Source: Eledone cirrhosa
Taxonomy: Eukaryota
Direction: 5' to 3'
Assembly: GCA_964016885.1 (NCBI GenBank)
Contig: OZ024743.1
Span: 41,478,001-41,542,000, forward strand
DNA length: 64,000 bases
Part shown: positions 3,546-52,752 of the stretch, piece after piece
Layout: each line of letters opens with the position of its first letter
Numbering within the stretch: position 1 is the stretch's first letter
The notes under the pieces: model-generated
Seen by the model: the letters and a program-made list of their open reading frames with translations, nothing else
The model's database searches: none
What the model was told of the DNA's origin: nothing
Program-made: the position numbers and the translations under genes

Positions 3546-3622
<77 letters not shown>

Positions 3623-12324: not shown

Positions 12325-12534
12325 GGACACACTGCGCTGCTTTCAACCAGTTTGTTGAAAGGTGGGTGAGATTGGTGAGCATGATCCGTGTGAATGGGCT
12401 TGCCTTGAATATACCCCTTTAGGGTGTAGGAGAACAACTGGAAGGAGGCACTTTGACCTAGAGGTCAGGGTGACCGTGGCCTTTTGTGGGCTTTCTCCAC
12501 GATTGACACTTGGAGTCTCTCCAGCTTTAGGAAA
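12325..12534 (+). mobile_element. Tx1 3'-end fragment (ORF2 end and part of 3' UTR)
   Basis: tttgttgaaaggtgggtgag...gtgaatggg and a 3' UTR similar to the other copies. Confidence 0.7.
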
Positions 12535-14643
12535 TTTGTTATGTTTGGACGTGACCAACAGTGAAAGCTATGCTATTAGGCTAGTGGCTGTTTATGCCCG
12601 TCAGGGGGAGGGCGGCCTGATTTCTTCAGGTGAATGGAGATTTCGTAGGAACGTCGCGTTCTTTAATGTTAGAGGGCGATTGGAATAGGATCTTGGATGC
12701 ACGCTGGGATTGTGTGGGATTAGCAGATAGTGGAGTAGAGTGCAAATACCTCACAAACCTGCTCAGGCGTATCCATCTCCCTGACATTTAACGACTAAAT
12801 TTCCCGAATATACCAATGTGGACACGGACAAACCACATCGCTTCATCCAGATCGTATCTAGAGTAATTTGTAAGGAAATAGATACATATTTCTAGCATGG
12901 GTTGTCCACAATTAAAGATAGACGACTACACAGACCACAGATTCGTGATCTGTGTTCTCGACTTAGATAGGCTTCATAGACTGGGACCCAGCTACTGGAA
13001 GTTGAACGCGTCGCTGACAACGCGCAAAGCCTACACAGACCAAATTAACGAACTAGTTAAACAGGCGTTGACAGAGGGAGTCGTCAATAACAAATGGTGG
13101 TTCTTCCTGAAAAGGGTGATTAGAATAGAGTACATTAGATTTAGTAAGGTATTAGCAATAGAGAAAATAGAGGGAGAACTTGTTAGCAAACTAGACGGGG
13201 TGCCTAGTAAAGCCATCGCAACCAACGTGCTAGCGGCGAAATTGGCCCGCGACCAATTCTTCAAAGCAAAGCACGAAAGTTGCGTTGTCAGAGCTAAGGC
13301 GCGTGCTCTCAGACACGAGGGGTAGAAAGCCGTTTGGTGGGTGCGAGTGGCATAGGTAGAGGCACGGGTGGGTCCTTGATCAATTTAGGTCAGTCGAAAG
13401 CTTTCGATAGGCTGGAACATCGTTATCTGGCGGCCGGTTTCTGGCCCGTCGTCAGAGACTGGATGGGTGCCATGCACAGTGACATCTTATCTGTGGTAAG
13501 AGTGAAGGTCATCTTTCGGAAACATTCAAAATCATGCGCTCGGTCGACCAAGAATGTATTGACTCTCGAGCCATTACTGCACAGACTGGAGACGTTGAGC
13601 GGCGTCCCGTACGCACTGGGATGCGGGAGAACCGCGTCAGCATATGCCGACGAATTCACCGTAGTTGTGTCAGCGCCAAACACATTTAGACGATCGGCAC
13701 TACACAGAGAATACGAGGCTGTTACAGGAACAATGATTGACTACGAAAAGTAGGTGTTCCTGCGGCTCAGCATCTGCAGATGCAGGTCCATGTCGTTCAA
13801 CAGCGTCGTCGTGCTAGGGGTCTGGTTCCATCCGGACCTCCAGGCGGACACATTGGGATGAGGTAACTCGCAAGATGTCCTCTTTCACCCAGAAATTGGC
13901 CGAGAGGACTCTATCCCTTAAGGTCAAGCGTATGTGGCGAATGCGATAACATCTAAAGGCATGGAAGTTCCGGCAACTGGCCATGTTCGAGATGCATGCT
14001 GGGCGACGAAACCGTCCTGCATGCACGCGTCCAATGTCTGAGCATTGCTGACTTGTGGGTTTTGTCGAACACTGCTGCCACGTTTAGGACGGATCCGGCT
14101 ATCAGCTGAGGGCATCGTGAGGATTGCCCCAGCGCCTTCCTTTAGCCGGGGAGGGAAGGCGTTTTTTCTGGCTGGTCGCAATGGTGAAGGAGGTCCTGTC
14201 TTGGACGCGTTTGAAAGGGCTGAAGACGAGCACGTACATCTTCGGTGATACTCAGATTATCTTTTTCAAATTTCATTTGAAAAGGAAAATCAGGATGGAG
14301 AGAGATGTGCGCCCTAACCAGCAATTTGTTGAAATATGGGTGTGAGAGGCAAGCATGCCCCTAGTGAATGGGCCTGCTCTGAGTATGTACCTGTAGATTA
14401 GAGATGGAGAGGGCTTTTGCCCTGATGATTAGTGTCACCGTGGTTTTTTTAATGGGCTTTATCCACAAGTGACCGTCAGATGTCTCCAACCCCTATTGGG
14501 GAATTTCCCTTTGTTTCTTTTTTTGTCATTTCCTTTGTTTTTTTAATTTACACGCAGAAATGCCCACTGTACTGACCTGTACCGACCTGTCCTGCCCTTT
14601 AATTTTATACTTTATGTCAACGCTCTTGGTCAATAAAAAAAAA

Positions 14644-14644
<1 letters not shown>
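12535..14644 (+). mobile_element. degenerate, internally deleted Tx1 copy (APE-RT remnants)
   Basis: Fragments RLVAVYA, YTDHRF, QSKAFDR, AYADEF, FHLKRKIR; 3' UTR, then (ATT)n at 14645..14683. Confidence 0.85.
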
Positions 14645-14683
<39 letters not shown>

Positions 14684-17468
14684 GGCGACCTACGTAGGAA
14701 ATCGTATCATCGTGAGCTCCGCAAAGGTTTGTTGTTTTAAGTTGTTTCAAATTGCTATTTATGGAAAAACTTTGTTGTTAAGTGTTCATGAGGGCACAAC
14801 ATTTGCTTTCGGAAAAGGACACTCAAAAAGATTGGGGCCTTGAGCCCAAAATTTAAACTTTTATAATTATCAAACAAAAAATTTCTTTCAAAAAATCATG
14901 GATGACCTACAGCTACACCAAGCAGCTGAGAGCTTTCCTCACAAACTAACACTTCACACCAACAACACCATTGTAAATACCACTACGTTTGCCAAGACTA
15001 AAAATATAAGCAGTAGCAATAATATAAATTTGTCTCATGCAGACATTCATTTCCCGCCATTACCAATGACTGCAGATGTTGAAGCCGCCACCTCCACCAC
15101 CACCACAGCGACAACAGAAACAAAAGAAAAAAATAAATTATCTCGTGATATCGAAATGGATTCACACAGAATCGATTCTTCCAAACCGAATACCACTGAC
15201 GCCAGCACCACGACAAATGAAACTAAAAATAACAATAACAAAAATAACAATAACAACAACAGCAACAACAACAATGAGAATAACAACAAGAACCTCAACA
15301 CCACCGTGAGGTTTGACAAAGCAGCCAAAAAATGCGAAACAATCCAGGTAACTCAGGAGGAATTAGATGAAGCCAAGAGAATGGTAAAGAAAGATGGGTA
15401 CAGGGTCAGCCCCCCCCCCACACACACACATACACACCTAATAAAATGGAGCATCGGCGGCTATGCACCGTGTTTTTCGGACGATTAACATAAAATCGGA
15501 TGCCCGTTCCGAGTGGAACGGGCATCCGAGTCACAAATGCAAAAGTCTTTGAGACATGTGTGGGCAACAAAAAATAGCCACATCAGACGTGGGCAGAAAT
15601 ATGGAACCGTGGACGTATTCTTTGGAACACCACAGGAGGTCAGAGAGCACTCCATGGCCCCATTAAGAAGCGACGACTTCACACTCGTCCCAAGCTATTG
15701 TGGCGGCCAGAGACTCGTAAAGATCAGGGTGACCCACGTTCCACCGGCCATCGAAATTCCCTGGCTAATGGCTGACGTCCTCGCCGGCATCGAGGCCAAC
15801 ACCAAAATAATCGAAATAACAAAAGAAAAGCAGGAGAACTGGTCCAAATCTGGGATGGAGCTCCTGATCAAAGCGGACCAAAAAAGGATTGGTGAGATCC
15901 CAGAGGTAATAGACCTCACTGACAGCAGCCAGCTCACCATAATCGTCGAGGGTAGAAGGTCTAGGTGTGTCGTTTGTGGTGAAGGAACCCACATAAGGAC
16001 TTTATGCCCTCAGGCTAAAAAGTTGAGACCACCTGTCTTACCCACCCCAGCGACTCAACCATCAATACCACCGGACCATCAGACGGACAAAAACTGGGAC
16101 GAGGTGATGAGCAGGGTGCTTCTCTCACCCAGAAATGGGCGGAGAGGAAGCTATCCCTGAAAGGTCGAGCGGAGGTGGCTAACGGGTAAATCGCGTCCGT
16201 CATCTACTACCGCCTGACCGTCGTACCTTGTCCTAAGCCCCGCCTGACTGCGCTGGAGCGTTTGCTCTTTCGCTTTTTGTGGAAGGGACGCGCTCCGATG
16301 GTCAGGCGGTACATCTGCTGTCAACACCCGCTACGTGGAGGGCTGGGAATGCCGTGGCTGATGATGCGCAGACACACGCTCAGGCTACGACATCTCCACC
16401 CCTTCCTCGACGGTGATAAGGTTTGGTCTCCGTTTTGCTAGACACCTCTTTCACCAGCTCGTCTCCTTGACGGAGCTGCAGGCCAGGGTCAAGCGAAGAC
16501 CGAGAGGGAGCGCTTGGAGACTGGAATGTCTTCAGGCGCTCACAGCCCTCGACCAATCGGGCAATGTGATCGGTGGAAACTCCAACTTGGCGTTCTATAG
16601 AGGATTAGTGGAGGGGAAGAGCGACGATGTACCTGGGGAAACTCTAGGCGTCGATGAAAATCAACTAGCCAATCTCTTCGGAAGAACTTTCGGGCCGGGG
16701 TCTATGGACAACTTCCAGAAATCTTTGGCCTGGCAGAGCTACCGAGGAGCTTTGCCAGTTCGGGATAAACTCTACAGGCATGGAGGTGCCGTCAGCCGGG
16801 CATGTCCGAGATGCGCGCAGGGCGACGAAACCGTCCTGCACGCACTCGTCCAGTGTCGAGCATTGCTGACTTGTGGGTTTATGTCGAACACCTGCTGTCG
16901 CGTGTGGGTCGGATACGGCTATCAGCTGAGTCAATCGTGCGGATTGCCCCGCCCTCTACCTTTTTCCGGGAAGAGCAGGCAGTTTTTATCTGTCTGGTGG
17001 CCATGGCGAAAGAGATAGTATGGTGGACACGTTTGAAAGGGCTGAAGACGAGCACTTTCCTCTTCGGTGATGCCCTGATTAACTTTTTCAAATTTCATTT
17101 GAAGAGGAAAATCAGGGTAGAAAGGGAAGTGCTCTCTTCCCAGCATTTTGTTGAAAGATGGGTGAGAGAGGCAAGAATGGCCCGAATGAATGGGCCTACT
17201 CTTAGTATGTGTCTGTAAATTAAAGGTGGAAAACTGGGAGAGGGCACTTGCCCTGGTGGTCGGGGTCACTGTGGCTTTTTAATGGGATTTCTCCACCAAT
17301 GTCCCTCGGAAGTCACCCCCCTATTGGGGACTTTTTTCATTGTTCTATTATAACATCCTGTTTCTTGTTTTTTTTACACGCAGAAATGCCCATTTGTACC
17401 GCCCTGTATTGTCCTGTACTGTCCTTAATGTCTACTTTATGTAAACCCTTGTGGTTAATAAAGAAATC
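14684..17468 (+). mobile_element. Tx1 copy, ORF1 type B, with ~3 kb internal deletion
   Basis: 5' end ggcgacctacgtag matches 46792... ORF1 with CVVCGEGTHIRTLC knuckle jumps at ~16071 into the post-YADD part of ORF2. Ends aataaagaaatc(att)n. Confidence 0.88.
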
Positions 17469-17489
17469 ATTATTATTATTATCATTATT

Positions 17490-20400
17490 GAATGCTATGA
17501 TTTGCGGAAGCTCGGCTCTGTAAGGTATTGTAAATTTTGACCGCTATAACAATTATAAATTGTTTAAAACTTTAACCAACTTGTAGACAAAAACACCCTC
17601 CTCCTCGTGAGAGGGGTCTTTCTGCCCGTTATTCAGCTCTACGTGGTTAAATAACCGCTTATTGGGGTTTTGTGCCCAATATTTATTTTAAACAAAAAAA
17701 AACAAAACATGGCTACGAAAAGGAATTTTCATAGGTCACTGCCACTCATTCCGTCTTCTTCTTCCTCAATCGTCACTATAGCAGAGAGAAGATTGTCTCT
17801 CTCCCTCCCTTCTCTTTCGCAAGCGACGCCAGAAAAGAAACATCACGTGCAAAGCGTGCAAGATTTCTCCACGACGACGACAGCGACGAAAAAGGTGTGC
17901 GGGAATTCGTCTGACGTCTGACGTCAAGAATAATAGCAGTAGCAGCCGTAATAACAGCAGCAACAGTGACAAGGAAAACAACAGTAGCAGCCGCAACAAC
18001 ATCATCAGCAGCATAAACAACAACAGCATTAGCAGCAACAACAACAGCAGCAGCAGCAGCAGCAGCAACGACAACAACAACCACAGCAACAGCGGCGGCG
18101 GCAGTAGTCGTAGTACCTGCAGCAACAACAAAAGTAACAGCAGCTCTGACGACAACAACAACAGCAGCAAAGAAAAACCAATCTGGTTTGCAGGTATCGC
18201 AAAGAACCTGGAAACCATCCTCATAACAAATGAGGAATTAGAGGAAGCGAAGAAGATAGTGACAAAAATTCGACACCGAGCAATCTGCAAGGCAGCCGAA
18301 AAATTGTTCGAAACCCAACAGCAATGTACGGTCACGTACCGCAAAGTAAGTACAAAATCCCGTAGGGTTGAAAGAGCCATAGAGGCTCAAATACAAAAAG
18401 CCTTGGGCTCTGTGTGGCAGCGGAAAACGCACATCACCCGAGGCAAGAAATATGCCACCGTAGACGTACTTTTTGCCACACCCCAGGAGGCAAAGGCTCA
18501 ATCATTAGTGTCCCTAAGGAGCGAGGAAATGGTGTTGGCGCCCTCCTACTGCGGGCAAAAAATTGTGAGGGTCAAACTGACCCCCCCCCCGTCCCGAGAT
18601 GGCCCCTTCTTCGGAAATCAAAAACAGCAGCAGCAGTGGAAGTATTAACAACAACAACAGCAATACCAAATGCAGCTGCAACAGAGACTCCAGTGCAAAT
18701 ATCACCAACAACAACAAGTGAAAGAGTGGAGTTGGTATCCCTCCCCGACCTCACAGAATCAGACCTGGAGTGTGAGGTGGGAGAGGGATGGCAAAAGGTC
18801 GTAAGAAGGCACAAACGCAGAAGCAGCGCATCGTCGCCTTCGAAAAGGGAGGAAAGGAATGAAAAAATGGTAAAGGCTACTGCAAAGAGACTCACAGCAG
18901 CAACACCACCAACACCATCACCACCCACACTAACACCACCATCACCACCGGCGACAACCCTACCGCCAACAACAACAACACCTTCAACACCACCACCACA
19001 AGCACCAACATCGCAAACATAACAACAAAACACACACACCCAGCAACAACGACAAGAAAATAGCAGAACCACACCCCCAACCCCAGAAAAACAAATGCAC
19101 GGCAATAAATTTAACAACAAGAAACTAATGACTTACATAATTGAACACACAGACATTTCACAACACGACTACATAATACCAGCACCAATCAAAACGCCAA
19201 CTAACATAAGACTGCTAAAAATAGCACAGAAAGAATACACAAACATTAAAACGAAATTCCCCAGCGCAGTTGGTGATTTCAGAGACCTAGGAGGGACTCT
19301 CAACCGAAGAGTATATTCGGACATACTCATAGAAGAGCTGACGACCAGCCGAAGGGACGATTCAACGGTCCCTTCACCAGACGATCAAGTGAAAAGGGAT
19401 GGAAAAAACATCCCTCCTCTACGAAAAGTACGGTAAGTGGTCTTTCCCATCTTTTCCACTCTATTTTAAACATGACCTCACTCAGAATAGGCAGCATAAA
19501 TGCGCATGGCTTGGGGTCGTCATGGAAGCAGGGTCACCTGCTCAACGACCTCAGGTCACTAAACATAGATGTAGTGGCCATCAGCGAGACCAGAATCTCC
19601 GAAGCACGGGCCTTCGCACCGATCTTCGGCGGCTACGATGTGTACGCATCTCCCAGCCGTCCTGGATCGGGAGGTCGAGTTGCTGTGCTTTTTCGGAGAG
19701 GTTTGGATCTCGCCATACGGGCCATCTTCCTGGACCCAGAGGGTAAGTTGGTGATGCTGGACGTGACCAGCGGAGACGGGCAAGCTTTCAGGCTAGTGGC
19801 CGTCTATGCACCGACAGGAGCAGGGCGGCCTGATTTCTTCTGGAGTCTGGAGACCTTTCTTGGAACGTCACGCTCTTTAGTGTTAGTGGGCGACTGGAAC
19901 GGGATCTTAGATGCACGCTGGGACTGTGTGGGATTAGCGGATAGGGGTGGAGGTTGCAAGAGCCTCACCAACCTGCTCAGGCGTTTTGAACTGTTTGACA
20001 GGTACCCATTGGATTTCCCGTATGTGCCAATGTGGACTTGGACAAATCGCATAGGGTCATCCAGATCATATCTAGATATAGTATTTTGTAGGGAAATAGA
20101 TATGTCTAGCATGGGATGTCCACAATTCAAGATAGTCAGCTACACGGACCATAAATTCGCGATCTGTGTGCTTGACTTAGATAGGCTTCATAGACGAGGA
20201 CCCGGCTACTGGAAGCTAAACGCGTCCTTACCAGCGCGCAAGACCTACAGAGACCGGATTAGCGAACTAGTTAAGCGGGCGTTGACGGGGGCCATCGTCA
20301 ACAACAAGTGGTGGTTTGCTCTGAAAAGAGCGATTAGAATAGAATCGATTAGGTTTAGTAAGGCTTTAGCAATAGAGAAAAATAGAGCAGAGGGAGAATA

Positions 20401-22821
20401 GTTAGAAAATTAGACGAGGCGCTTAGCAAAAGGATTGCGACCGATGTGCTTGGGGCGAAATTGGCCCTTGACCAATTCTTCAATGCAAAGCACGAAGGCT
20501 GCGTTATCAGAGCTAGAGTGCGTGCTCTCAGACACGAGGGGACGAAAGCCGTTCAATGGGCCCAAGTGGCGGAGGTGCGTCGTGGCAACAAAGCCAAGAT
20601 CCGGTCTTTGGTGGTCCACGACGGGCGCATGCTACTCGATCCCGGGCAAATGTGTGAAGCTTTTCAGCGACACTTCGCTCAGCTGTTCGGGGGCAACGGT
20701 GGGCCGGGTCGAGGGATGGACTTTAGTGTCTATCTCGACGAACTGCCGCGGAGTGTTGTGAAAAGTCGATAACAGCCGCTGAAGTAAGGGAGGCAATGAC
20801 TGGCTGCACAAGGGATCAATCACCTGGTTTGGTTCGTCTGCCCTATGAACTTTACGTACAGCTGCCAGACTCGTTCGGAGGCCTCTTGGCGGACGTCTAC
20901 TGCAACTGGCAACAGAACGGCAGATTTCCCAGTTCTGTGAGCCGAGAAGCTGGGGCACTGCTGAGAAAGGATCCGAACAAGGAAATAACATAGATAATTT
21001 CCGGCCCATAACTCTGCTAGACACAGAGTTCAAGATGTTGTCCAAGGTGCTAGCAAAGAGGTTGGCGCTTTTCGTTGGTGGTCTGGTGGGAGAGGCGCAG
21101 ACATGCGCCATTCCCGACAGATCCACCCACGACAACCTCCACCTCATGCGATACATCGTAGAGAGGGTAGCTAGGGAACCTGGCACGGGTGGGTCCTTGA
21201 TCAATTTAGATCAGTCGAAAGCTTTCGATAGGGTCGACCATCGTTACCTAGCGGCAGTCCTGAGGGCGGCTGGCTTTGGGCCCGTCTTCAGAGGCTGGAT
21301 CGCTGCCATCCACAGCGCATCTGCTCTGTGGTGAGAGTGAACGGTCACCTTTCGGAACCGTTCAACATCATGCGCTCGGTCCGCCAAGGATGTCCCCTCT
21401 CGTCCCTCTTGTACGTATTGCCTCTGGAGCCATTACTGCACAAACTGGAGACGTTGAGGGGCGTCCCGCGCGAGCTAGGATGCGGAAGATCCGTGTCAGC
21501 ATATGCGGACGATATCACCGTAGTGGTGTCGAACGCCAAACACATCGAGGCGATCGGCACTACACTAAGAGAATACGAAGCGGTGACAGGAGCAATGATC
21601 AACCAGAAAAAGTCAGTGGGCCTGCAGCTCTGCACCTGGAGAGGCAGGTCCATGCCGTCCAACAGCGTCGTCGGACGCTGGACGGACGGACCGGTTAAAT
21701 TGCTAGGGGTCTGGTTCGGTCCGGACCTCCAGACGGACACAAACTGGGACGAGATGATGAGCAGGGTGGCTTCTCTCACCCAGAAATGGGCGGGGAGGAA
21801 GTTATCCCTGAAAGGTCGAGCGGAGGTGGCTAACGCGTACATCGCGTCTGTCATCTGCTACCGCCTGACCGTCGTACCTTGTCCGAAGCCCCCCGCCCCC
21901 TGACTGCGCTGGAGCGTTTGCTCTTTGGCTTTTTGTGGAAGGGACGCGCTCCGATGGTTAGTGGAGGGAAAGAGCGACGACGTACTTGGAGAAACTCTAG
22001 GCGTCACGAAAATCAACTAGCCAATCTCTCCGGAAGAACTTTCGGGCCGGGACCTATGGACAATTACCAGAAATCTCTGGCCTGGCAGTGCTACCGAGGA
22101 GCCTTGCCAGTTTGGGATAAACTCTACAGGCATGGATGTGCCGTCAGTCGGGCATGTCCGAGATGCGCGCAGGGCGACGAAACCGTCCTGCACGCACTCT
22201 TCCAGTGTCCGAAAATTGCTGACTTGTGTGTTTATGTCGAACACTTGCTGTCGCGTGTAGGACGGATCCGGCTATCATCTGAGTACATCGTTAGGATTGC
22301 CCCGCCCTCTTCCTTTAGCCGGGAAGGGCAGGAAGTTTTTATCTGTCTGGTGGCCATGGCGAAAGAGATAGTATGGTGGACACGTTTGAAAGGGCTGAAG
22401 ACGAGCACTTACCTCTTCGGTGATGCCCTGATTGACTTTTTCAAATTTCATTTGAAAAGGAAAATCAGAGTAGAGAGGGAAGTGCTCTCTTCCCAGCATT
22501 TTATTGAAAGATGGGTGAGAGAAGCAAGAATAACCCAAGTGAATGGGCCTACTCTGAGTACGTATCTGTAAATTAAAGGTGGAAAACTGGGAGAGGGCAC
22601 TTGCCTTGGTGGTCAGGGTCACTGTGGCCTTTTACTGGGCTTTCACCACAAATGTCCCTCCGAAGCCTCCCCCCTATTGGGGAATTTTTCATTGTTATTT
22701 TTTGTTACATCCTCTGTTTTTGTTTTTTACACGCAGAAATGCCCATTTGTACAATCCTGTATTGTCTTGCACTGTCCTTAATGTCTACTTTATGTAAACC
22801 CTTGTGGTTAATAAAGAAATC
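17490..22821 (+). mobile_element. Tx1 copy type A, both ends present, disrupted
   Basis: Closely similar to 27762..33793. ORF1 17709..19436 and ORF2 19472..22571 carry stops, frameshifts and deletions at ~18610 and ~21958. Confidence 0.92.
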
Positions 22822-22845
22822 ATTATTATTATTATTATTATTATT

Positions 22846-27741: not shown

Positions 27742-27976
27742 TTATTATTATTATTATTATTGAATGCCATGGTTGACGGAGGCTCGGCTCTGTAAGGTAT
27801 AGTAATTTTTAACCGTTAAAACAATTGTAAATTGTTTAAAACTTGAACCAAATTGTTGATAAAGACACCCTCCTCCTCGTGAGAGGGGTCTTTCTGTCCG
27901 TTATTTGGCCCTTCGGGGTTAAATAACCAGTTATTGGGGTTTTGTACCCAAAATTTCATTTTAAACAAAAAACAAC

Positions 27977-30073: not shown

Positions 30074-30122
30074 GTGGTCTTTCCCATCTTTTCCACTCTA
30101 TTTTAAACATGACCTCACTCAG
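30070..30122 (+). other. candidate 53-nt GT-AG intron spanning the ORF1 stop and ORF2 start
   Basis: cg|GTAAGT...pyrimidine tract...ctcactcAG|a; in-frame join; same arrangement at 19433..19485 and 48921..48972. Confidence 0.5.
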
Positions 30123-39800: not shown

Positions 39801-39905
39801 ATAAAATCTTTACGCCCACAAAACCCAAATCGTTCCGTCCTGTACCGTCCTGTGCCGTCTGTAATGTTTTTCTTGATGTCAGCCCTTGTGGCCAATAAAG
39901 AAATC
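33836..39905 (+). mobile_element. Tx1 copy type C, full length, degenerate
   Basis: Distinct 5' UTR (gaaggtgaagcc...), ORF1 remnants with CYLCGSNGHLRAFC, APE/RT remnants, ends aataaagaaatc(att)n. Confidence 0.9.
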
Positions 39906-39914
39906 ATTATTATT

Positions 39915-39951
39915 ATGTCTACTTTATGTGAACCCTTGTGGTTATTAAAGA

Positions 39952-39954
<3 letters not shown>
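39915..39954 (+). mobile_element. 40-nt Tx1 (type A) 3'-terminal fragment
   Basis: atgtctactttatgtgaacccttgtggttattaaagaaa between two ATT tracts. Confidence 0.75.
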
Positions 39955-40006
<52 letters not shown>

Positions 40007-40010
40007 ATAA

Positions 40011-40541
40011 TGAGTCCATCGTGAGGATTGCCTAACCCTCTTCCTTTAGCCGGGAAGGGCAGGCAGTTTTTATCTCACTGGTGGCCATGGCGAAAGAGAT
40101 AGTATGGTGGACACGTTTGAAAGGGCTGAAGACGAGCACTTACCTCTCGAAGCCCTGATTAACTTTTTCAAATTTCATCTGAAAAGGAAAATCAGGGTAG
40201 AGAGGGAAGTGCTCTCTTCCCAGCATTTTGTTGAAAGATGGGTGAGAGAAGCAAGTATGGCCCGAATGAATGGGCCTTCTCTGAGTATGTGTCTGTAAAT
40301 TAAAGGTGGAAAACTGGGAGAGGGCACTTGCCCTGGTGGTCAGGGCCACTGTGGTCTTTTAATGGGCTTTCTCCACAAATGTCCCTCGGAAGTCTCCCCC
40401 CTATTGGGGAATTTTTCTTTGTTATTTTATTTCATCCTCTGTTTTTTTTACACGCAGAAATGCCCATTTGTACCGTCCTGTATTGTCCTGTACTGTCCTT
40501 AATGTCTACTTTATGTAAACCCTTGTGGTTAATAAAGAAAA

Positions 40542-40542
<1 letters not shown>
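40011..40542 (+). mobile_element. 5'-truncated Tx1 copy
   Basis: ORF2 C-terminus and 3' UTR between ATT tracts. Confidence 0.9.
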
Positions 40543-40593
<51 letters not shown>

Positions 40594-41020
40594 GTTCTTT
40601 GAGTCTCAGTCATTGATGTTAGTTCACCTGAAAGTTTGTTGAAATGAATATCAAGCCACTACCTGCAACCTCAGATATTCAGGACGTATCGGAGCGTTCT
40701 TGCTGTTCCCAGCAAGCATGCCTTTTGAAGCGTTCCAAAAAGCTTGAAGGGGCCAATTTTCTTTAACCATCCCTGGAAACTTTTTGAGATAGTCCCTAGT
40801 GCGCCTATGACAATCGGGACCACTTTGACTTCATGGCAGTTCCAAATCCTTTTTACCTCCGATTTTAAGTCCTGGTATCGGTTAATTTTCTCCCTCTCCT
40901 TCTCTTGCACTCTCGTGTCGAATTGGCAGGCCACATCCACAATCAGGCACGATCTTTTTTCTTTGTCCAAAACCACCAGGTCAGGTCTATTGTGTTCCAG
41001 TTTCTTGTCCGTCTGTATCC

Positions 41021-41021
<1 letters not shown>
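40594..41021 (-). mobile_element. 5'-truncated R4/Dong-like copy (second family; RLE domain)
   Basis: RIQTDKKLEHNRPDLVV...IVDVAC...KINRYQDL...GALG; bounded by (TAA)n. Confidence 0.9.
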
Positions 41022-41066
<45 letters not shown>

Positions 41067-41067
<1 letters not shown>

Positions 41068-44000
41068 GCCGCACATGTGTGAAGACAGACAAGTCTGCGG
41101 GGGAAAAGGTACGTAGCTTTAAACTGTTTTAAATTGTCTTTTTTTTGTATTTCCTTGTCATTAAAGAAACTTAAGGTACACATCTTGATTTAAAGAGGGG
41201 GCTACCTCTCAATATTTGGGCTTTAAGCCCGAATATTGAGATTTATTTTTTAAAAACTTCGAAAAAAATCGCTTCCCCACCAAAAAAAAAAAAATTATGG
41301 AAATTTTCAACCTTGAAACGGTAAACAAAGTTCAGGTCAAAAGTTTAAAGGCAGCCACTGCAGATTTCATCACGACTACGACGGCTACAGTCATGCCTGT
41401 CATCCACTCTACTGAATGTGAAGGCAAAACTAAAAAGCTACCATCACAATCTTCTGCCATAGCAGCAGTATCATGTGAAAACAGCATCACCACCACCGCC
41501 AGGAAAGCTCTCCCACTCCCCCTACCCCCCAATTATACACATAGACAAAAAAATAAATAAATGCACACACAGACACAGAGACACTCACAGACACAGACCC
41601 TTTGTCTTCCAGCAGCGAAGATGAAGGAAAACCCAAAAGTGCAAAAAAACAGAGAAAACTCACAAAAAAAAAGCCCCAACAAAACACAAAAACCCACACA
41701 ACAAAAAATACAGACACCATTAACGCAAACACTTCCCCAATAACATCAGCATCATCAGCAACATCGACACCACCTCCACAATCCCCGAAACGCAAACAAC
41801 CTAAACAAACACAAGTACAAATAAACACACAAATACCTGAAATTGCAGACACCACACCTACAACAAACATAGACATACCCGAAACAACACCACCAAAACC
41901 ATCGCCACCACCTTCACCAAAACGAAAACAAATAAACCCACACCGACAAAATGTTAAAAACTTCGTGATTGTCAGAAGGGCCAACGATAAACTGATGGCC
42001 CTCTTAGCGCGAAGCGAGGACATTCAAACAGAGGGGGAGATTTTTGAAATGAGCACATTTTGCGTGCCAGAAGATTTGCTTCTGGTCCGAATGTCACTCA
42101 ATTCCTTCAAAGAAATTCAGGAGAGCTTTCCTCAAGACGTGGGAAACCCGAATGTGAAAACCACATCAAGACTTTTAAAGGGGTTCCCAAAAGAAACCCC
42201 ACCAACCATGGAGATCGAACCACCCGACCTTCACAAGACCCGGGAGGTAAGTAAACCTTCCTTCTCTCTCTCTTAGCTTACCAATATGGCCATATTAAGA
42301 GTAGGAAGTTTAAATGTTCGCGGCCTGGGGTCACCCTGGAAGCAGGGTCGCCTGCTCAACGACCTCCGGTCGCTGGAAATGGATGTGATTGCCGTAAGCG
42401 AGACCAGAATTTCCGACACACGCGTACTTGCCCCCATTTTCGACGACTATCAGATCTTCGCATCTGTTAGCAGGCCAGGAATGGAGGGTGGGGTGGCAGT
42501 GCTGTTTAGGAAAGGACTGGATCTCGAGGTAAGGTCAATCTTCCGGGACCCAGACGGTAAGTTGGTGGTCTTGGATGTGAGCAGTAGCGAAGGTGGTGCC
42601 TTTAGACTGCTGGCCGTCTACGCCCCTACAGGGGCCGGACGACCTGACATCTTTAGGCGCCTGGAGACCTTTCTGGGTACGTCTCGCCCTTTACTGTTAG
42701 CGGGGAACTGGAATGGCATCTTAGACGCACGCTGGGATTGTGTGGGAGTAGCCGATAGGAGCCGGGGGTGCAAAAGCCTCAAGCACCTACTCAGCCAGTT
42801 CCAACTGTCTGACAGGTATCGACTAGATTTCCCCAATGTGCCAGTATGGACATGGACCAATCGAATGGGGTCATCTAGATCGTATATAGACAGAATCTTC
42901 ATTAGGAAAATACATAGAAATAGTGTGGGCTGTCCACTTTTTAAAACGGTCGCCTATTCAGATCACAAATTTTTGATCTGTACGGTCGACCTAAATAAAA
43001 TGCATAGGTTAGGACCGGGTTACTGGAAGCTGAACATGTCATTTCCGGCACGTAAGGCTTACAGGGACCGAGTCAACAAGTTAGTTAAGCAAAAGTTGAC
43101 AGGGGGGATCATCAACAACATATGGTGGGGGGCTCTCAAAAGAGAGATTAGAGTAACTTCGATAGAGTTCAGCAAAGAACTAGCGTTAGAGAAAAATAGA
43201 AAGGAGTGGGAGCTGGTAGATAAGTTAGACGAGGCTATTTGTAGTGGCATCGCAACTGACGTGCTAGCGGCGAGAATGGCATTAGACCATTTCTTCAATG
43301 TCAAACACGAAGGTTGCATTGTCAGAGCTAAGGCGCGTGCGCTGCGAAACGAGGGAACTAAAGCTGTTCGATGGGCCCGCGTGGCGGAGGCGCAGCGTGG
43401 TAATAAAACCACAATTCGGTCTTTGGCGGCCCGAGATGGACACGAGATAAGCGATTCCAAGCGGATGTATGAGGCCTTTCGCCAGCACTTTGCTCCGCGC
43501 ATCTCGACGGTCGACGCTGAGCGCTGCGAAAGGCCGATTACTTCAGCCGAAATTCAGGATGCCCTTGTCGGCTGCATGAGGCGCAAGTCACCCGGTTTGG
43601 ATGGCCTGCCCTACGAGCTTTACGTAAATATGCCAGACTTGTTCTCCGAACTCCTCGAAGCACTCTATTGTAACTGGCAGCAGAATGGGAGTATTCCCAG
43701 TTCTGTGAGCAGGGGAGTAGCGACGCTGATAAGGAAAGACGAGAACAAGAGCGATACATTAGACAACTTCAGGTCCATAACTCTGCTCAACACAGAGTTT
43801 AAGATTTTGGCCAAGGTGTTAGCAAAGAGATTGGCGCTTGTCGTCGAGGATTTGGTTGGGGAGGCGCAAACTTGCGCAATCCCAGCCAGGTCCATACACG
43901 ACAATCTCCACCTCATGCGATACATCATAGAGAGGGTAGGGTGTAAACCTGGCTTCGGTGGGGGCACTGATCAATTTAGATCAATCGAAAGCATTCGATA

Positions 44001-45920
44001 GGTTCGACCATCGGTATCTGGAGTTTGTCCTCAAAGCAGCTGGCTTCGGCCCTGTCTTTAGAAGCTGGATCGTTGCAATGCACAGCGGCACACGCTCGGT
44101 GGTCAAGGTTAATGGCCACCTCTCGGAACCATTTCGGCTCTCCCGATCGGTCCGTCAAGGGTGCCCTCTCTCTTCCCTTCTGTACGTATTGACTCTCGAG
44201 CCTTTACTGCGGAAGCTGGAGCTGTTGCAGGGCATCCCGCTCGAACCGGGACGTGGTAAGGCGGTGTCGGCCTATGCGGACGACATCACCGTGATGGTGT
44301 CGAACACCTCAGAAATCGAGGTGGTCGGCACCTTATTGAAGGAATATGAAAGGTTGACAGGAGCCAACCTTAACCCGGAAAAGTCGGTGGGCTTGCAGCT
44401 CGGAACCTGAAGAGACAAGCCCATGCCGTCCAACAGCGTCGTGGGGCGCTGGACGGACGGACCAGTAAAGTTGCTCGGGGTTTGGTTCGGACCAGACCTC
44501 CAGGTGGAAAAGAATTGGGACGAGGTAATGAGCAGAGTAGCCAGTCTCACCCAAAAATGGGCTGGGAAGAAGCTATCACTGAAAGGTTGCGCGGAGTTGG
44601 CGAATACGTACATCGCGTCTGTCATCTACTACCGCCTAACCGTCGTGCCTTGCCCCCGTCCGCGCCTCGTCAAGTTGGAACGGCTCCTCTTCAAATTATT
44701 GTGGAGGGGACAAGTTCCGTTGGTGAGGCGGTCCATCTGCTGCCAGCACCCTCTACGCGGAGGGCTGGGCATGGCGTGGCTAATGATGCGCAGACATGCG
44801 TTGAGGCTGCGACATCTCCAGATATTCTGCCTCAATTGTGAACAGGTGTGGTCGCCGTTTATCAGACAGGCCTTTCCGCAGCTCATTTCTTTGACTGAGC
44901 TGCAGTCCTGGGTCAAGACGAGACCGAGCTTGGGTGACTGGCACCTGGAATGTTGCCAGGCACTCACTGCCCTCTACCAAGCGGGCAATGCGATCAGTGG
45001 AACTTCCACTCTCGAGTTCTATAGAGGATTAGTGGTGGGCAAGTGCGATGACGCACTCGGAGAAGCTTTGGGCCTCGACGAAGTCGAACTGACCAGTCAG
45101 TACCGGAGGACTTTTGAGCCGGGGACGATGGACAATTTCCAGAAGTCCCTCGCTTGGCAGTGCTACCGGGGGGCATTGCCGGTTCGGGATAAACTCTACA
45201 GGTACGGAAGTGCTGTCAGACGGACCTGCCCAAGATGCGCACAGAACGACGAAACCGTTCTGCACGCACTTGTCCAATGTCCGTGCATTACTGACTTGTG
45301 GAGTTATGTCGAACAGCTACTGTCGCGTGTGGAACGAATCCGGCTATCGACCGAGTCCATAGTGAAGATCGAGCCGCCACCTTCCTTAGGTCAGGAAGAG
45401 CAGGACATTTTCCTCTGTCTGGTGGCAGTTGAGAAAGAGATTATACGGTGGACCAGGTTGAAAGGACTAAAGACAGACACTTTTCTCTCCGGCCAATCCC
45501 TCATCAACTTCTTCAAGTTTCACCTGGAAAGGAGGGTAGGGTGGAGAGAGAAGTGCTGCCCCCCAGTACATTTGCTAATAGGTGGGTGAATGTGGCGAGA
45601 ATGGCTCGTGTGAATGGGCCTACTCTGACCATGCGCCTATAGGCTGGCTAACTTGAGGAGAGGGGTGCTCTCCTGGGTGCCCTAGAAGCGCAGGGTGGTT
45701 CAGGATTGGTGGGGTACCCGAATCACCCCAGGGTCGTCTACCCCCTATCGGGGAATTTATTTTGTTATATTTATGCATAGTTTATTTTATATTTTTATAT
45801 TTTCATTGTTAAATTAGTCTTGCCATTGTGCACTTTTACTCGACCTAATTGTAAACCCCCACTGTCCCTGTCTTTGTATTGTCCCCTACATGTCGGCCCT
45901 TGTGGCTAATAAATGAAATC
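41067..45920 (+). mobile_element. Tx1 copy type D (short ORF1 41297..42276; ORF2 42286..45642 disrupted)
   Basis: SLNVRG, VSET, YSDH, AYADD, CPRC..HALVQC; ends aataaatgaaatc(att)n. Confidence 0.9.
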
Positions 45921-46012
45921 ATTATTATTATTATTGTTGTTGATATTCTTTGAGATTTTTGTGTCTATTATGACAATCTTCCAGTATCATTTTGTTAACC
46001 AGAAGCTGATCC

Positions 46013-46068
<56 letters not shown>

Positions 46069-46776
46069 GTTGTTGATATTCTTTGAGTCTCAGTCATTGA
46101 TGTTATTTACTTGGAAATTTTGTTGAAAAGAATATCAAGCGGCTACCTGCAGCCTCAGGACGTATCGGAGGGTTCTTGCTGTTCCCAGCAAGCATGCCTT
46201 TTGAAGTCTTCCAAAAAGCGGGGCTGGACTAATTTTCATTAACCATCCTTGGAAACTCTTTGAGATATTACCTAGTGCGTCTATGACAATCGGGACGACT
46301 CTGATTTTATGGCAGTTCCAAATCCTTTTTACCTCCCACTTTAAGTCCTGGTATCGGTTAATTTTCTCCATCTCCTTTTCTTGCACTCTCGTGTAAAATG
46401 GGCAGGCTACATCTACGATCAGGCATGCTCTTTTTTCCTTGTCCAAAACCACCAGGTCAGGCCTATTGTGTTCCAGTTTCTTGTCCGTCTGTATCCTAAA
46501 ATCCAATAGCACCTTCACCTGAAAGTTTTCTATCACCGACTCTGGCTTATGCTCATACCACTTCTCAGAATGTGGTAAATTGTTTACTTTGCATAGGTGC
46601 CAGTGGATCACTCTACCCATCACATCATATCTCCAGCCTTTATAGTGAGTCTGGGCTAGGTGTTTACACTCGGATACAATGTGATTTACAGTCTCCTTTC
46701 TCTCTCCACAGATCCTACACAGTGGGCTAGCCTCCTCCTTGTAAATATGGTGTTCCACGCACTTCGTTCTGAGGGC
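46069..46776 (-). mobile_element. 5'-truncated R4/Dong-like copy (second family; CCHC and RLE)
   Basis: ALRTK...CRICGERKETVNHIVSEC...RPDLVV...DVACP; bounded by (TAA)n. Confidence 0.9.
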
Positions 46777-46791
46777 ATTATTATTATTATT

Positions 46792-49700
46792 GGCGATCTA
46801 CGTAGTAAATCGTATCATCGTGAGCTCCGCAAAGGTTTGTTATTTTCAGTTATTTAAAATTGCCATTTATGGAAAATTTGTATTGTTAACTATATATAAG
46901 TGCACATACATTGATTGATGAAAAGGACACTCAAAAATATTGGGGCCTTGAGCCCAAAATTTAAACTTTTTATAATTATCAATCAAAAAATGTTTTCTTT
47001 GAAAAATAATGGATGACTCAGATTTAATCCTACCTCACAATCCAACACCTCACACCGACACCACCATTGTAAACATTGCTACGTTTGCCAACACTGGAAT
47101 TGTAAGCAGTAGCAATATTTTAAATTTGTCTCAGGCAGACGTTAATTTCCCGCCATTACCAATGACTGCAGGTGTTAAAGCCGCCCCCCCCCCACACCCC
47201 ACACACACACCACCACCAGAGCGACAACAAAAACAAAAGAAAAAAATTAACTCATGATATCGAAATGAATTCAACCAAAATGAACTATTCCATACCGAAC
47301 ACCACTGACACCACCACCACCACAACTGAAACTAAAATTAACAATAGCAAAAATAACGATAATAACAACAGCAACAATGAAATTAAGACAACTACCCTGA
47401 GTTTTGCCAGAGTAGCAAAAACGTGTGAAGCGATTCAGTTAACTCAGGAAGAATTAGACGAAACCAAAGGAATGGTAAAGAAAGATGGGTACAGGGTCAG
47501 CCCCCCTCCCACCTAATAAAATGGAGCAACGTCGCCTATGCACCGTGTCTTATCGGACAATAAACATACAATCGCGCCGAGTGGAACGGGCATCTGAGTC
47601 CCAAATCCAAAAAGCTTTGGGACATGTGTGGGCAAAAAAACCCACATCAGACGTGGGCAGAAGTATGGAACCGTGGACGTGTTCTTTGAAACACCACAGG
47701 AGGCCAGAGAACACTCCATGGCCCCATTAAGAAGTGACGACTTCACACTCATCCCAAGCTATTGTGGCCAGAGACTTGTGAAGATCAGGGTGACCCACGT
47801 TCCACCGGCCATCGAAATTCCCTGGCTAATGGCTGCCGTCCTCGCCGGCATCGAGGCGAACAACAAAATAATAGAAATAGCAAAAGAAAAGCAGGAGAAC
47901 TAGTCCGGGTCTGGAATGGAGCTCCTGATCCAAGCAGACAATAAAAGCATTGAAGAGATCCCAGAGGTAATATACCTCACTGACAGCAGCCACCTCACCG
48001 TAGTCGTCGAGGGCAGAAGACCTAGGTGTGTCGTTTGTGGTGAAGGAATCTACCTAAGCGCTTTCTGCCCTCAGGCTAAAAGGTTGAGGCCACCTCTCTT
48101 ACCCACCCCAGTGACTCAACCATCAACACCACCAGCAGCAGAAAGGGCAGCAACAACTGTAGCAGCAACAACAGAAGCAACTGTAACAGCAACAACCCCA
48201 GCAACAGTAGCAAAACAAACACCACCACCACCCAACGTCCTAGAACTAGCACCAGCGCCTACACCATCCACCAGGCCACAAACAAAACCAACGCCTGTGG
48301 AGGATTTTCCACTCCCCGGCTAATCGCAACTGGAGACAGATTGTGAAGACGAGGAGTGGGAAACCGAATCAGGAAAAAAGAAAATAAAAAACAAAAAAGA
48401 AAAAATTCTCTTCCTCCCCCCTCAAAAAACAAAATACAGAGGGAAACAAATAAATTATCGAACAAGAAAGTTAAGACAGATATGCCACCATCTACACCAG
48501 CATCACCAACCCCATCACCACAAACACCAATACCATCACCATCATTAACCCCAACACCACCATCACCAACACCACAACATTCACCAAAAAGCGTAACAGG
48601 TACAAACCCACAACAGACGCAAACAAAACAAAACAACCAAAACGATACACACTACACAGCATTAAATTTGAACAACAACCAATTATTACACTACATGAAA
48701 AACAACACCAGCATCACAGAAAAAGACTACACAACAACCCACACATACAAATCACTCGCATCACACAGAAAACGTACATGACACTAAAACAAAAAATCAC
48801 CAAAGACATCGGAGACTTCCGACAAACAGTCTCCAGGGGGATTTATAAGGACATCCTTCCGGAGGAGGCCACAAGCAGTGAAAAGGATGGACAAACCATC
48901 CTTCCTCTACGAGAAGTAAGGTAAGTGGTCTTTCCCATCTTTTCCACTCCATTTCAACATGACCTCAATCAGAATAGGCAGCATAAATGCACGTGGCTTG
49001 GGGTCGTCATGGAAGCAGGGCCACCTGCTCAACGACCCCAGGTCACTAAACATAGATGTAGTGGCTATCAGCGAGACCAGAATCTCTGAAGCACGGGCCT
49101 TCGCACCGATCTTCGGCGGCTACGATGTGTACGATTTGTCCATCCTTTTCACTGCTTGTGGTCTCCTCCAGTCGTCCTGGATCGGGCGGAGGAGTTGCTG
49201 TGCTTTTTCGGAGAGGTTTGGATCTCGCCATACGAGCCATCTTCCTGGACCCAGAAGGTAAGTTGGTGGTGCTAGACGTGACCAGCGGAGACGGGCAAGC
49301 TTTCAGGCTAGTGGCCGTCTATGCCCCGACAGGAGCAAGGCGGCCTGATTTCTTCCGGCGTCTGGCGACCTTTCTTGGAACGTCCCGCTCTTTAGTGTTA
49401 GTGGGCGACTGGAACGGGATCTTAGATGCAAACTGGCACTGTGTGGGATTAGCGGATAGGGGAGGAGGGTGCAAGAGCCTCACCAACCTGCTCAGGCGTT
49501 TTGAACTGTCTGACAGGTACCCATTGGATTTCCCGAATGTGCCAATGTGGACTTGGACAAATCGCATAGGGTCATCCAGATCATATCTAGATAGAGTATT
49601 TTGTAGAGAAATAGATAGGTCTAGCATAGGCTGACCACAATTCAAGATAGTCAGCTACATGGACCACACATTCGTGATCTGTGTACTTGACTTAGATAGG

Positions 49701-52641
49701 CTTCATAGACGAGGACCCGGCTACTGGAAGCTAACGCGTCCTTACCAGCGCGCAAGGCCTACAGAGACCTGATTAGCGAACTAGTTAAGCGGGCGTTGAC
49801 CGGGGCCATAGTCAACCACAAGTGGTGGTTTGCTCTGAAAAGATAATTAGAATAGAGTCCATTAGTTTTAGTAAGGCTTTAGCAATAGAGAAAAATAGAG
49901 CAGAGGGAGAACTAGTTAGAAAATTAGACGAGGCGCTTAGCAAAGGCATCGCGACCCACGTTCTTGCGGCGAAAATGGCCCATGACCAATTCTTCAATGC
50001 AAAGCACGAAGGCTGCGTTGTCAGAGCTAGGGTGCGTGCTCTCAGACACGAGGGGACGAAAGCCGTTCAATGGGCCTGAGTGGCGGAGGTGCATCGTGGC
50101 AACAAAGCCACGATCCTGTCTTTGGTGGACCTGGACCGGCGCATGCTACTCGATCCCGAGCAAATGCGTGAAGCTCTTCAGCGACACTTCGCTCAGTTGT
50201 TCGGGGGCAACGGCGGGCCGGATCGAGGATGGACTTTAGTGTCTACCTCGACGGCCTGCCGCAGCTCTCGGCCACTGAGGCGGAGTGTTGCGAAAAGCCG
50301 ATAACAGCCGCTGAAGTACGGGAGGCAATGTCTAGCTGCACAAGGGGTAAATCGCCTGGTTTGGATGGTCTGCCCTATGAACTTTACGTACATATGCCAG
50401 ACTTGTTCGGAGGCCTCTTGGCGGACGTCTACTGCAGCTGGCAAAAGAACGGGAGTTCTGTGAGCCGAGGAGCTGTGGCGCTGCTGAGAAAGGATCCGAA
50501 CAAGGGGGATAACATAGATAATTTCCGGCCCATAACTCTGCTAAACACAGAGTTCAAGATTTTGGCCGAGGTGCTATCAAAATGGTTGGCGCTTGTCGTT
50601 GGTGGTCTGGTGAGAGAGGCGCAGACATGCGCCATTCCCGACAGATCCATCCACGACAACCTCCACCTGATGCGATACATCGTAGAGTGGGTAGCTAGGG
50701 AACCTGTCACGGGTGGGTCCTTGATCAATTTAGATCAGTCGAAAGCTTTCGATAGGGTCGACCATCGTTACCTAGCGGCAGTCCTGAGGGCGGCTGGCTT
50801 TGGGCCCGTCTTCAGAGGCTTGATCGCTGCCATGCACAGCGACATCTGCTCTGTGGTGAGAATGAACGGTCACCTTTCGGAACCGTTCAACATCATGTGC
50901 TCGGTCCGCCAAGGATGTCCCTCTCGTCCCTCTTGTACGTATTGACTCTCCTAGCCATTACTGCACAAACTGGAGACGTTGAGGGGCGTCCCGCGCGAAC
51001 TAGGATGCGGAAGGTCCGTGTCAGCATATGCGGACGATGTCACCGTAGTGGTGTCGAAAGCCAAACACATCGAGGCGATCGGAACTACACTAAGAGAATA
51101 CGAAGCGGTGACAGGAGCAATGATCAACCAGGAAAAGTCAGTGGGCCTGTAGTTCGGCACCTGGAGAGGCATGTCCATGCCGTCCAACAGCGTTGTCGGG
51201 CGCTGGACGGACGGACCAGTCAAGTTGCTCGGGGTCTGGTTCGGTCCGGATGTCCAGACGGACAAAAACTGGGACGAGGTGACGAGCAAGGTGGCTTCTC
51301 TCACCCAGAAATGGGTCGAGAGGAAGCTATCCCTGAAAGGTCGAGCGGAGGTGGCTAACGCGTATATCGCCTCCGTCATCTACTACCGCCTGACCGTCGT
51401 ACCTTGTCCTAAGCCTCGCCTGACTGCGCTGGAGCATTTGCTCTTTCGCTTTTTGTTGAAGGGACGCGCTCCGATGGTCAGGCGGTCCATCTGCTGTCAA
51501 CACCCGCTACGTGGAGGGCTGGGAATGCCGTGGCTGATGATGCGTAGACACGCGCTCAGGCTACGACATCTCCACCTGTTCTTCGACGGTGATCAGATGT
51601 GGTTGCCGTTTGCTAGACACATTTCCCCAGCTCGTCTCCTTGACGGAGCTGCAGTCCTGGGTCAAGCGAAGACCGAGAGGGAGCGCTTGGAGACTGGAAT
51701 GTCTTCAGGCGCTCACAGCCCTCAACCAATCCGGCAATGTGATCGGTGGAAACTCCACCTTGCCGTTCTATAGAGGATTAGTGGAAGGGAAGAGCGACGA
51801 CGTACTTTGGGAAACTCTAGGCGTCGACGAAAATCAACTAGCCAATCTCTTCGGAAGAACTTTCGGGCCGGGGCCTATGGACAACTTCCAGAAATCCCTG
51901 GCCTGGCAGTGCTACCGAGGAGCTTTGCCAGTTCGGGATAAACTCTACAGGCATGGAGGTGCCGTCAGCGGGGCATGTCCGAGATGCGTGCAGGGCGACG
52001 AAACCGTCCTGCACGCACACGTCCAGTGTCTAGAGCATTGCTGACTTGTGGGTTTATGTTGAACACCTGCTGTCGCGTGTGGGACGGATCCAGCTATCAG
52101 CTGGGTCCATCGTGAGGATTGCCCCGCCCTCTTCCTTTAGCCGGGAAGGGCAGGCAGTTTTTACCGGTCTGGTGGCCATGGCGAAAGAGATAGTATGGTG
52201 GACACGTTTGAAAGGGCTGAAGACGAGCACTAACCTCTCGAAGCCCTGATTAACTTTTTCAAATTTCATCTGAAAAGGAAAATCAGGGTAGAGAGGGAAG
52301 TGCTCTCTTCCCAGCATTTTGTTGAAAGATGGGTGAGAGAGGCAAGAATGGCTCGAGTGAATGGGCCTACTCTGAGTATGTGTCTGTAAATTAAAGGTGG
52401 AAAACTGGGAGAGGGCACTTGCCCTGGAGGTCAGGGTCACTGTGGCTTTTTAATGGGCTTTCTCCACGAATGTCCCTCGGAAGTTTCCCCCTAATGGGGA
52501 ATTTTTTCATTGTTCTATTATTACATCCTCTGTTTCTTGTTTTTTTTTACACGCAGAAATGCCCATTTGTACAATCCTGTATTGTCCTGTACTGTCCTTA
52601 ATGTCTACTTTATATAAACCCTTGTGGTTAATAAAGAAATC
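46792..52641 (+). mobile_element. Tx1 copy with type B 5' UTR/ORF1 and type A ORF2; full length, disrupted
   Basis: ORF1 47009..48924 and ORF2 48959..52389 with stops and frameshifts; tail is (ATT)n then (GTA)n to ~52751. Confidence 0.92.
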
Positions 52642-52683
52642 ATTATTATTATTATTATTATTATTATTGTTGTAGTAGTAGTT

Positions 52684-52752
<69 letters not shown>

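Follow-up and report, generated by a model that had tools for sequence, protein, structure and literature searches.

Tx1-like and Dong/R4-like retrotransposons share an (ATT)n target in opposite orientations in a 40-kb array of Eledone cirrhosa

The window analysed here is a 64,000-nucleotide stretch of the 3.0-Gb genome of Eledone cirrhosa (C4:41,478,001-41,542,000). It lies about 41 Mb into a 379-Mb contig and is thus interstitial. The window contains an array of two kinds of long interspersed element (LINE) inserted in one microsatellite, (ATT)n. BLAST of the array segments and Pfam matches placed nine pieces of Tx1-like elements, which carry an apurinic endonuclease-like (APE) domain, on the plus strand and four pieces of Dong/R4-like elements, which carry a restriction-like endonuclease (RLE), on the minus strand. 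We conclude, with a probability of roughly 0.8, that the array grew by separate insertions and that the two families prime from nicks on different strands of one shared repeat. A shared target, opposite fixed orientations and growth by repeated independent insertion had all been proposed from a sequence-only reading of the window, and the tests of flanks, orientation and relatives described below supported each of them.

Results

Junctions within the array

All 13 junction coordinates proposed in the sequence-only reading mark the start of an (ATT/TTA/TAT)n tract with 9-54 perfect nucleotides. Chance is excluded for these tracts, since (ATT)5 has a background of 1.5e-5 per position in an unselected 600 kb of the genome. 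Three of the junctions (27742, 41021 and 46777) are head-to-head, so their tracts are the 3′ tail of no element. The expected polarity, with every Tx1 piece on the plus strand and every R4/Dong piece on the minus strand, was found for all segments (S0-S12). The pieces also fall into the anticipated four Tx1 5′ types (S1/S12, S2/S4, S5 and S9) and two R4/Dong families, the C-terminus of S8 and S11 being 38-40% identical to that of S3. Tx1 pieces had been described as being as short as 40 nt; a very short piece is indeed present, but its length is 39 nt (S6). The bounds suggested for the array, 12325..52751, were correct as to the internal junctions, but there is no ATT tract at 12325 and the right bound, 52751, takes in a host (GTA)27 repeat.

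Relatives of the array copies

Each of the eight copies that have a relative within the window (8/8) found its best 3′-end match elsewhere in the genome. The outside and in-window identities were 99.4 versus 93.6% for S4, 96.7 versus 87.3% for S8, and 93.5 versus 93.3% for S12; for S3, S5 and S9 the window offered no match that long. The nearest relatives are on another chromosome (contig C1), and the truncation points all differ between the array copies. These closer relatives outside the array argue against local duplication. Nor did the same 3′-end comparison indicate that unequal exchange later expanded the array. Contigs and reads placed at the right junction cover only the unique flank (52766-53349), come from one sample and skip the repeat part.

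Targeting of (ATT)n across the genome

The 5′ ends (heads) of dispersed copies were counted as pattern matches over the genome. The Tx1 type-B head motif has 2372 matches, and ATTATT is found 18-22 nt upstream in 2323 of them, a count that may be slightly high given its variable gap. A 20-nt head pattern matched 2581 type-B heads, of which 2419 are preceded by five perfect ATT units in phase. ATT joined directly to GAATG was seen at all 30 type-B loci inspected, and the junction phase, TATT followed by G, was shared by 19/19 type-A and 40/41 type-B heads. At the opposite end, the Tx1 3′ motif has 16,285 matches, sister clade included, and 68 of 70 Tx1 3′ ends run on into ATT. The resulting target specificity for type B (94-98% of heads) can be set against a published criterion of more than 20% of flanks (PMC4494074). 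Members of the sister Tx1 clade, about 70% identical to the ATT clade, are flanked at both ends by (TATC)n, (TA)n or (TC)n and form tandems of their own (C3:100,091,293-100,106,415, loci L190-L191; also L217, L222, L247, L251 and L253).

Dong family A (Dong-A) has 1613 head matches and 4797 matches to its 3′ motif. Among the 832 heads on the forward strand, to which flank counts were confined as reverse-strand variable-gap counts run too high, 726 have TTATTA within 12 nt and 5 have TAATAA. Of 15 Dong-A alignment ends that lay within 1.5 kb, 12 abutted ATT, one abutted (TTC)n and two continued in Dong. The 3′ ends are joined as ATTA followed by CAG in 26 of 34 cases; the heads are variable, with a direct TTA in 11 of 31. 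The 5′ junctions of dispersed copies of both kinds are thus ATT-flanked, as the sequence-only reading required.

Polarity and growth of arrays

Across the tract from an anchored element end lies another Tx1 or Dong piece in 60 of 110 cases, a tally that leaves out 10 sister-clade loci of 30 Tx1 3′-motif loci. All 60 of these neighbours keep the polarity of the window, and the orientation is therefore fixed and not random. The first 30 V(ATT)6 tracts on C1 gave a similar picture: 13 had no element, 6 had one and 11 had two, with 28/28 sides polarized.

We compared the facing fraction with a simple growth model. Insertions, whose number was set at an assumed and rough 25,000, each split a randomly chosen tract. 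Starting from 30,000 tracts, the model gave a facing fraction of 0.46 and 15 arrays of at least 10 elements, the largest having 12; with 15,000 starting tracts the fraction was 0.62, and there were 131 such arrays with a maximum of 23. The observed fraction of 0.55 lies between the two, and the 13-element array in the window is therefore likely to belong to the expected tail. On this rough model, the genome would hold tens to about 100 arrays of at least 10 elements. The view that the locus is special or unique was rejected, since facing ends are common and the model yields many such arrays. In 600 kb of unselected sequence there was no full array and almost no ATT-clade element, most copies being of the sister clade, which indicates that arrays are patchy and argues against a uniform spread.

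Because an insertion leaves repeat on both sides, the array likely grew as a pile-up of both kinds of element. Each insertion would turn one tract into two, occupied tracts would keep drawing insertions, and long arrays would be the tail of this ordinary process.

By eye, many of the tracts that hold neither Tx1 nor Dong could be assigned to the 3′ ends of two short repeats. The first is an abundant repeat of about 190 nt that resembles a short interspersed element (SINE), with an ATT tail and 10-20-nt target-site duplications (TSDs) that start with ATT-like bases (L101, L128, L269, L285 and many others). The second also ends in (ATT)n (L256, L257, L261, L262, L269, L284 and L285) and lies behind many of the Tx1- and Dong-free tracts. 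BLAST placed Tx1 or Dong copies next to such short-repeat tails at 7 of 110 ends. The ATT tails of the SINE-like elements may supply many of the seed tracts. A SINE-like fragment is also present inside the 5′ untranslated region (UTR) of Dong-A (window ~26867-26945), and the 3′ end of the SINE-like repeat is loosely similar to that of Tx1.

Priming strand and choice of target

In target-primed reverse transcription (TPRT), the primer strand is the one complementary to the element RNA. From this geometry, Tx1 on the plus strand would prime on the A-rich strand, between AAT and AAT, and Dong on the minus strand would prime on the T-rich strand, with TTA/TT as the modal phase. The phases of the Tx1 junctions (68/70 3′ ends at ATT; 59/60 type-A and type-B heads after TATT) are consistent with cuts at T-A on both strands. 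The proposal that the two endonucleases nick opposite strands accordingly survives only for the priming nick: since either strand of the repeat offers a T-A step, no other cut needs to differ between the families.

The endonuclease (EN) is probably the main determinant of the site, with pairing between element RNA and target DNA as a helper; we hold this part with less confidence than the account as a whole, and it draws on sequence comparisons. The tract upstream of Tx1 is nearly always at least 15 nt long, and the downstream, primer side can be a single ATT (L110 and L127). A long upstream tract with a short primer side favours recognition by protein, as for SART1, which is described as needing about 12 bp of repeat upstream, while the TRAS1 EN nicks at T-A (PMC7265360). 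In EN, the ATT families also fall into a single clade, and its stem is 0.355 compared with 0.079 for the reverse transcriptase (RT). The EN of S9 is 72% identical to that of ATT type B and 57-62% to those of the TATC families, whereas its RT is 76-77% identical to the former and 78-79% to the latter. Target thus follows EN better than RT, which again favours protein recognition. EN motifs of the sister clade differ from those of the ATT clade. The counterpart of the L1 betaB6-betaB5 loop, located by alignment to L1 (the role of this loop is treated in PMC1950540), reads NR[I/M/T]GS in the ATT copies; outside the ATT clade it is mostly NRSG.

Several observations weigh against this account. Five perfect ATT units are missing at 162 of 2581 type-B heads and TTATTA within 12 nt at 106 of 832 forward Dong heads; 10 distinct Dong-A heads of the 1613 have TAATAA within 12 nt (L201-L215); and ATT is absent 5′ of some truncated or older Tx1 copies (S0, L092/L237, L097, L115 and L244). 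The sampled loci were the first listed on C1 rather than a random draw, some junctions were counted twice, from both sides, and the samples partly overlap. L224, a TATC-flanked copy, shares with the ATT clade an Ile at the tip of the loop. The link between EN and target amounts to one lineage switch, seen in query-anchored alignments of few copies, and is only suggestive. Finally, none of 82 Tx1 ends (not de-duplicated) has an A6 run within 80 nt after it.

The last point bears on the strongest alternative, that polarity is set mainly by RNA-DNA pairing: the EN would nick T-A in both strands, but priming would be confined to the one that complements the read-through tail of the transcript (AUU for Tx1, UAA for Dong). 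The T-A steps on both strands suit this idea, as do the 68/70 Tx1 3′ ends that continue as ATT. AATAAA is found 6 nt ahead of the tract at Tx1 ends, and together with the missing poly(A) after it (0/82) this fits priming inside a read-through AUU. Pairing with the nicked strand has been proposed for SART1 and R1Bm (PMC7265360). However, the long, nearly obligate tract is on the upstream, non-primer side (2419/2581), and the primer side can shrink to 3 nt. The EN diverges with target more than the RT does, and EN swaps are reported to shift specificity between TRAS1 and SART1 (PMC7265360). On balance we regard control mainly by pairing as unlikely, though as a serious contender.

Much less probable is that the locus is a trap kept by the host, similar to a cluster of PIWI-interacting RNAs (piRNAs), in which one read-through transcript would be sense for Tx1 and antisense for Dong. 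Tx1 heads do point into antisense Dong at 22822, 40543 and 45921, but neutral growth in the model already gives arrays this large. It is about as improbable, or slightly more so, that the elements themselves carry the flanking ATT, as co-transcribed upstream repeat and repeat tail, which would make the tracts products and not targets. The uniform Tx1 5′ junctions recall R2, whose RNA is described as retaining upstream target (PMC3774820), and no empty site was seen. Yet 5′-truncated copies, which cannot bring a head, are ATT-flanked all the same (12/15 Dong-A; S6-S8, S10 and S11), copies are found at the ATT/CTT and ATT/GTA edges of compound host repeats (L127, L088 and 52642), and elements insert into the tracts of other elements in a fixed polarity. 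Some lengthening of tracts during insertion may occur. Tandem or segmental duplication or an assembly artefact is very unlikely even though the placed reads do not cross the junctions, as at least 6 families with differing truncation points are present, the window has no N bases, neighbours are only 70-95% alike against near-identical copies on contig C1, and the same types of junction are found genome-wide.

Structure of the Tx1-like elements

The names Tx1 and R4/Dong are putative assignments by domain structure and target; the homolog sets assembled for both kinds of element (13 for the Dong-like RT) contained no clade-named member. Matches to PF03372, PF00078 and PF13966 (APE endonuclease, RT and C-terminal zinc-binding region) were found in the window frames and in the unbroken copy L121. 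The nearest Protein Data Bank (PDB) entry to the second open reading frame (ORF2) of L121 is human L1 ORF2p, with an E value of 1e-52 compared with 1e-21 for R2. Elements of the Tx1 clade have a separate ORF1 with a CCHC knuckle, and ORF1 of both S4 and L121 contains one Cx2Cx4Hx4C motif. ORF1 of S4 has 702 residues from stop to stop, and the Tx1-like ORF1 overlaps ORF2. Types A and B are 91-95% identical in ORF2 and the 3′ end, and their heads and ORF1 starts barely align (window 14684, 17490, 27762 and 46792), a pattern that suggests exchange of a 5′ module.

No duplicated non-ATT flank, or too little to judge, was seen at L127 and L110, where a TSD would hide in the repeat. At L101 a 12/15 match of the flanks was noticed by eye and may be a decayed TSD. 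Insertions at L127, L088 and L042 lie at ATT/CTT edges of compound microsatellites and have one ATT or none on one side. Near the ORF1/ORF2 boundary, S5 carries a 114-nt tandem duplication (window 35936-36162). Three apparent hairpins, judged by eye, end the type-B 5′ UTR (window 27860-27960), with similar ones in types A and D. L126 is a type-B copy cut at 3620 and fused to internal sequence of Dong family B (Dong-B) without an ATT tract; the join is probably a deletion spanning a junction.

Structure of the Dong/R4-like elements

S3 encodes an unbroken single ORF of 1216 residues with RT, CCHC and an RLE-type C-terminus of the PD-(D/E)xK kind. The motifs CxxC..H..C, RHD and RPD..D..K..KY were read from its translation aligned to R2, and its relatives in the PDB are R2 proteins only (best E 2e-25). 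No Rfam match near threshold was obtained for a 5′ ribozyme like that of hepatitis delta virus (HDV) in the Dong-like copies, and our own HDV-like descriptor, which had no positive control, matched 0 of 31 copies. Segment S10 consists of a Dong-B 3′ end and 60 nt identical to internal Dong-A sequence (24859-24918 in S3), with a 2-nt overlap at the join, and likely arose by a template jump between the Dong families. Among the Dong-A heads L201-L215, at least 3 TAA units are present in three, and the tract of one (L037/L201) has the form (AAT)n(ATT)n.

Order of segments

Tracts are given as read on the plus strand. The array begins with S0 (12325..14644, +), an old rearranged Tx1-like copy about 78% identical to young copies and without ATT at its left. 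It starts with a 3′ piece, continues with EN and RT pieces that have deletions and closes with the 3′ end; it is likely the seed whose 3′ tract was re-targeted. A tract of (ATT)13 (14645..14683) joins its tail to the Tx1 type-A head of S1 (14684..17468, +), which has an internal deletion of about 3.1 kb and an intact 3′ end. After (ATT)7 including one ATC (17469..17489) follows S2 (17490..22821, +), a frameshifted type-B copy with a deletion of about 300 nt and matches to EN, RT and zf-RVT. The (ATT)8 tract at 22822..22845 is a tail-to-tail junction with S3 (22846..27741, −), a full-length member of Dong-A whose ORF runs from 26636 to 22986. A 20-nt (TTA)n tract (27742..27761) then separates, head-to-head, S3 from S4 (27762..33793, +), a full-length type-B Tx1 with ORF2 in two overlapping frames.

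Next come (ATT)14 with one interruption (33794..33835) and the full-length but decayed type-C copy S5 (33836..39905, +). The tract (ATT)3A (39906..39915) precedes S6 (39916..39954, +), which is a Tx1 3′ end, and (TAT)17 (39955..40005) precedes S7 (40006..40542, +), a 5′-truncated Tx1 in which homology starts at 40011. Across the tail-to-tail tract (ATT)17 (40543..40593) lies S8 (40594..41020, −), a 5′-truncated Dong-B copy. Its truncated 5′ end meets the head of S9 (41065..45920, +), a Tx1 of type D, at (TAT)14 (41021..41064). S9 is joined tail-to-tail through (ATT)5 (45921..45935) to the 77-nt chimera S10 (45936..46012, −), and (TTA)18 (46013..46068) leads on to S11 (46069..46776, −), a 5′-truncated Dong-B copy with CCHC and RLE-type motifs. 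The last junction, the head-to-head (ATT)5 at 46777..46791, opens onto S12 (46792..52641, +), a full-length, frameshifted type-A Tx1. The right end (52642..52752) is a compound microsatellite of (ATT)9, GTT and (GTA)27. An (ATT)4 tract at 56176-56187, 3.5 kb past the array, is apparently without an element.

Discussion

The closest parallel is found in Bombyx mori, where TRAS1 and SART1 insert in opposite directions into one short tandem repeat (PMC7265360). As in that pair, two site-specific LINEs occupy a shared repeat in opposite orientations, here for 60/60 neighbours. TRAS and SART are both R1-clade elements with APE endonucleases and are telomeric, whereas E. cirrhosa combines an APE element of the L1 group with an RLE element in an interstitial repeat, scattered as tens of thousands of tracts. 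The Eledone system works like TRAS/SART, yet is not TRAS/SART, and since each ingredient is separately known the surprise is moderate.

The Dong-like elements agree with Dong of B. mori, DongAg and the snail DongBg, of the R4 lineage, for which a TAA-repeat target is reported (PMC3812793, PMC3774820), in their sense-strand TAA target, single RT-RLE ORF and variable 5′ junctions; such junctions are expected of an element whose RNA begins at its own 5′ end. They differ in being found together with a Tx1 family, of which the relevant passages of those two reports make no mention. Silkworm Dong is also described there as having a self-cleaving 5′ ribozyme, and none was detected in the copies here by the weak tests above. 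Microsatellite-specific Tx1 elements include Kibi at (TC)n, Koshi at (TTC)n and crocodilian families at (TTCC)n/(TTTC)n (PMC4494074). Ours resemble these families in having two ORFs and an APE domain, in belonging to the L1 group and in the strict, oriented way in which they target a microsatellite; the targets are different, being (ATT)n and, in the sister clade, (TATC)n, (TA)n or (TC)n. In R1 arrays, tandems are described as forming by double insertion, with target at each junction and distinct 5′ truncations (PMC5932611). Site preference builds tandems here with the same hallmarks, but R1 arrays are mostly of one family and head-to-tail, whereas two classes contribute head-to-head and tail-to-tail junctions in Eledone. 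In Octopus vulgaris, an annotation records Dong-R4 and L1-Tx1 families with recent activity; the sections that describe them do not analyse targets. A full-text literature search, with Repbase outside its scope, returned no report of APE and RLE elements co-targeting one interstitial microsatellite and none of an ATT-specific Tx1; the latter may already be catalogued, as the target list in PMC4494074 extends to further repeats.

A broader scenario, which we consider doubtful when all its parts are taken jointly, is that APE and RLE elements converged on one dispersed microsatellite and split it by strand into self-seeding, polarized mixed arrays; that Tx1 radiated over ATT, TATC, TA and TC targets through few EN surface residues; and that read-through from Tx1 heads, antisense to Dong, would make the arrays loci of mutual silencing.

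Two unrelated classes of nuclease can thus share a 3-nt repeat with strict opposite polarity, in thousands of young copies within one genome, and such sharing alone can build 40-kb blocks of transposable elements without duplication. Tx1 families that are close relatives but differ in target (about 60% EN identity), together with copies whose ORFs are unbroken, such as L121 and S3, form a natural panel that bears on how much of LINE targeting is due to the endonuclease and how much to RNA-DNA pairing.

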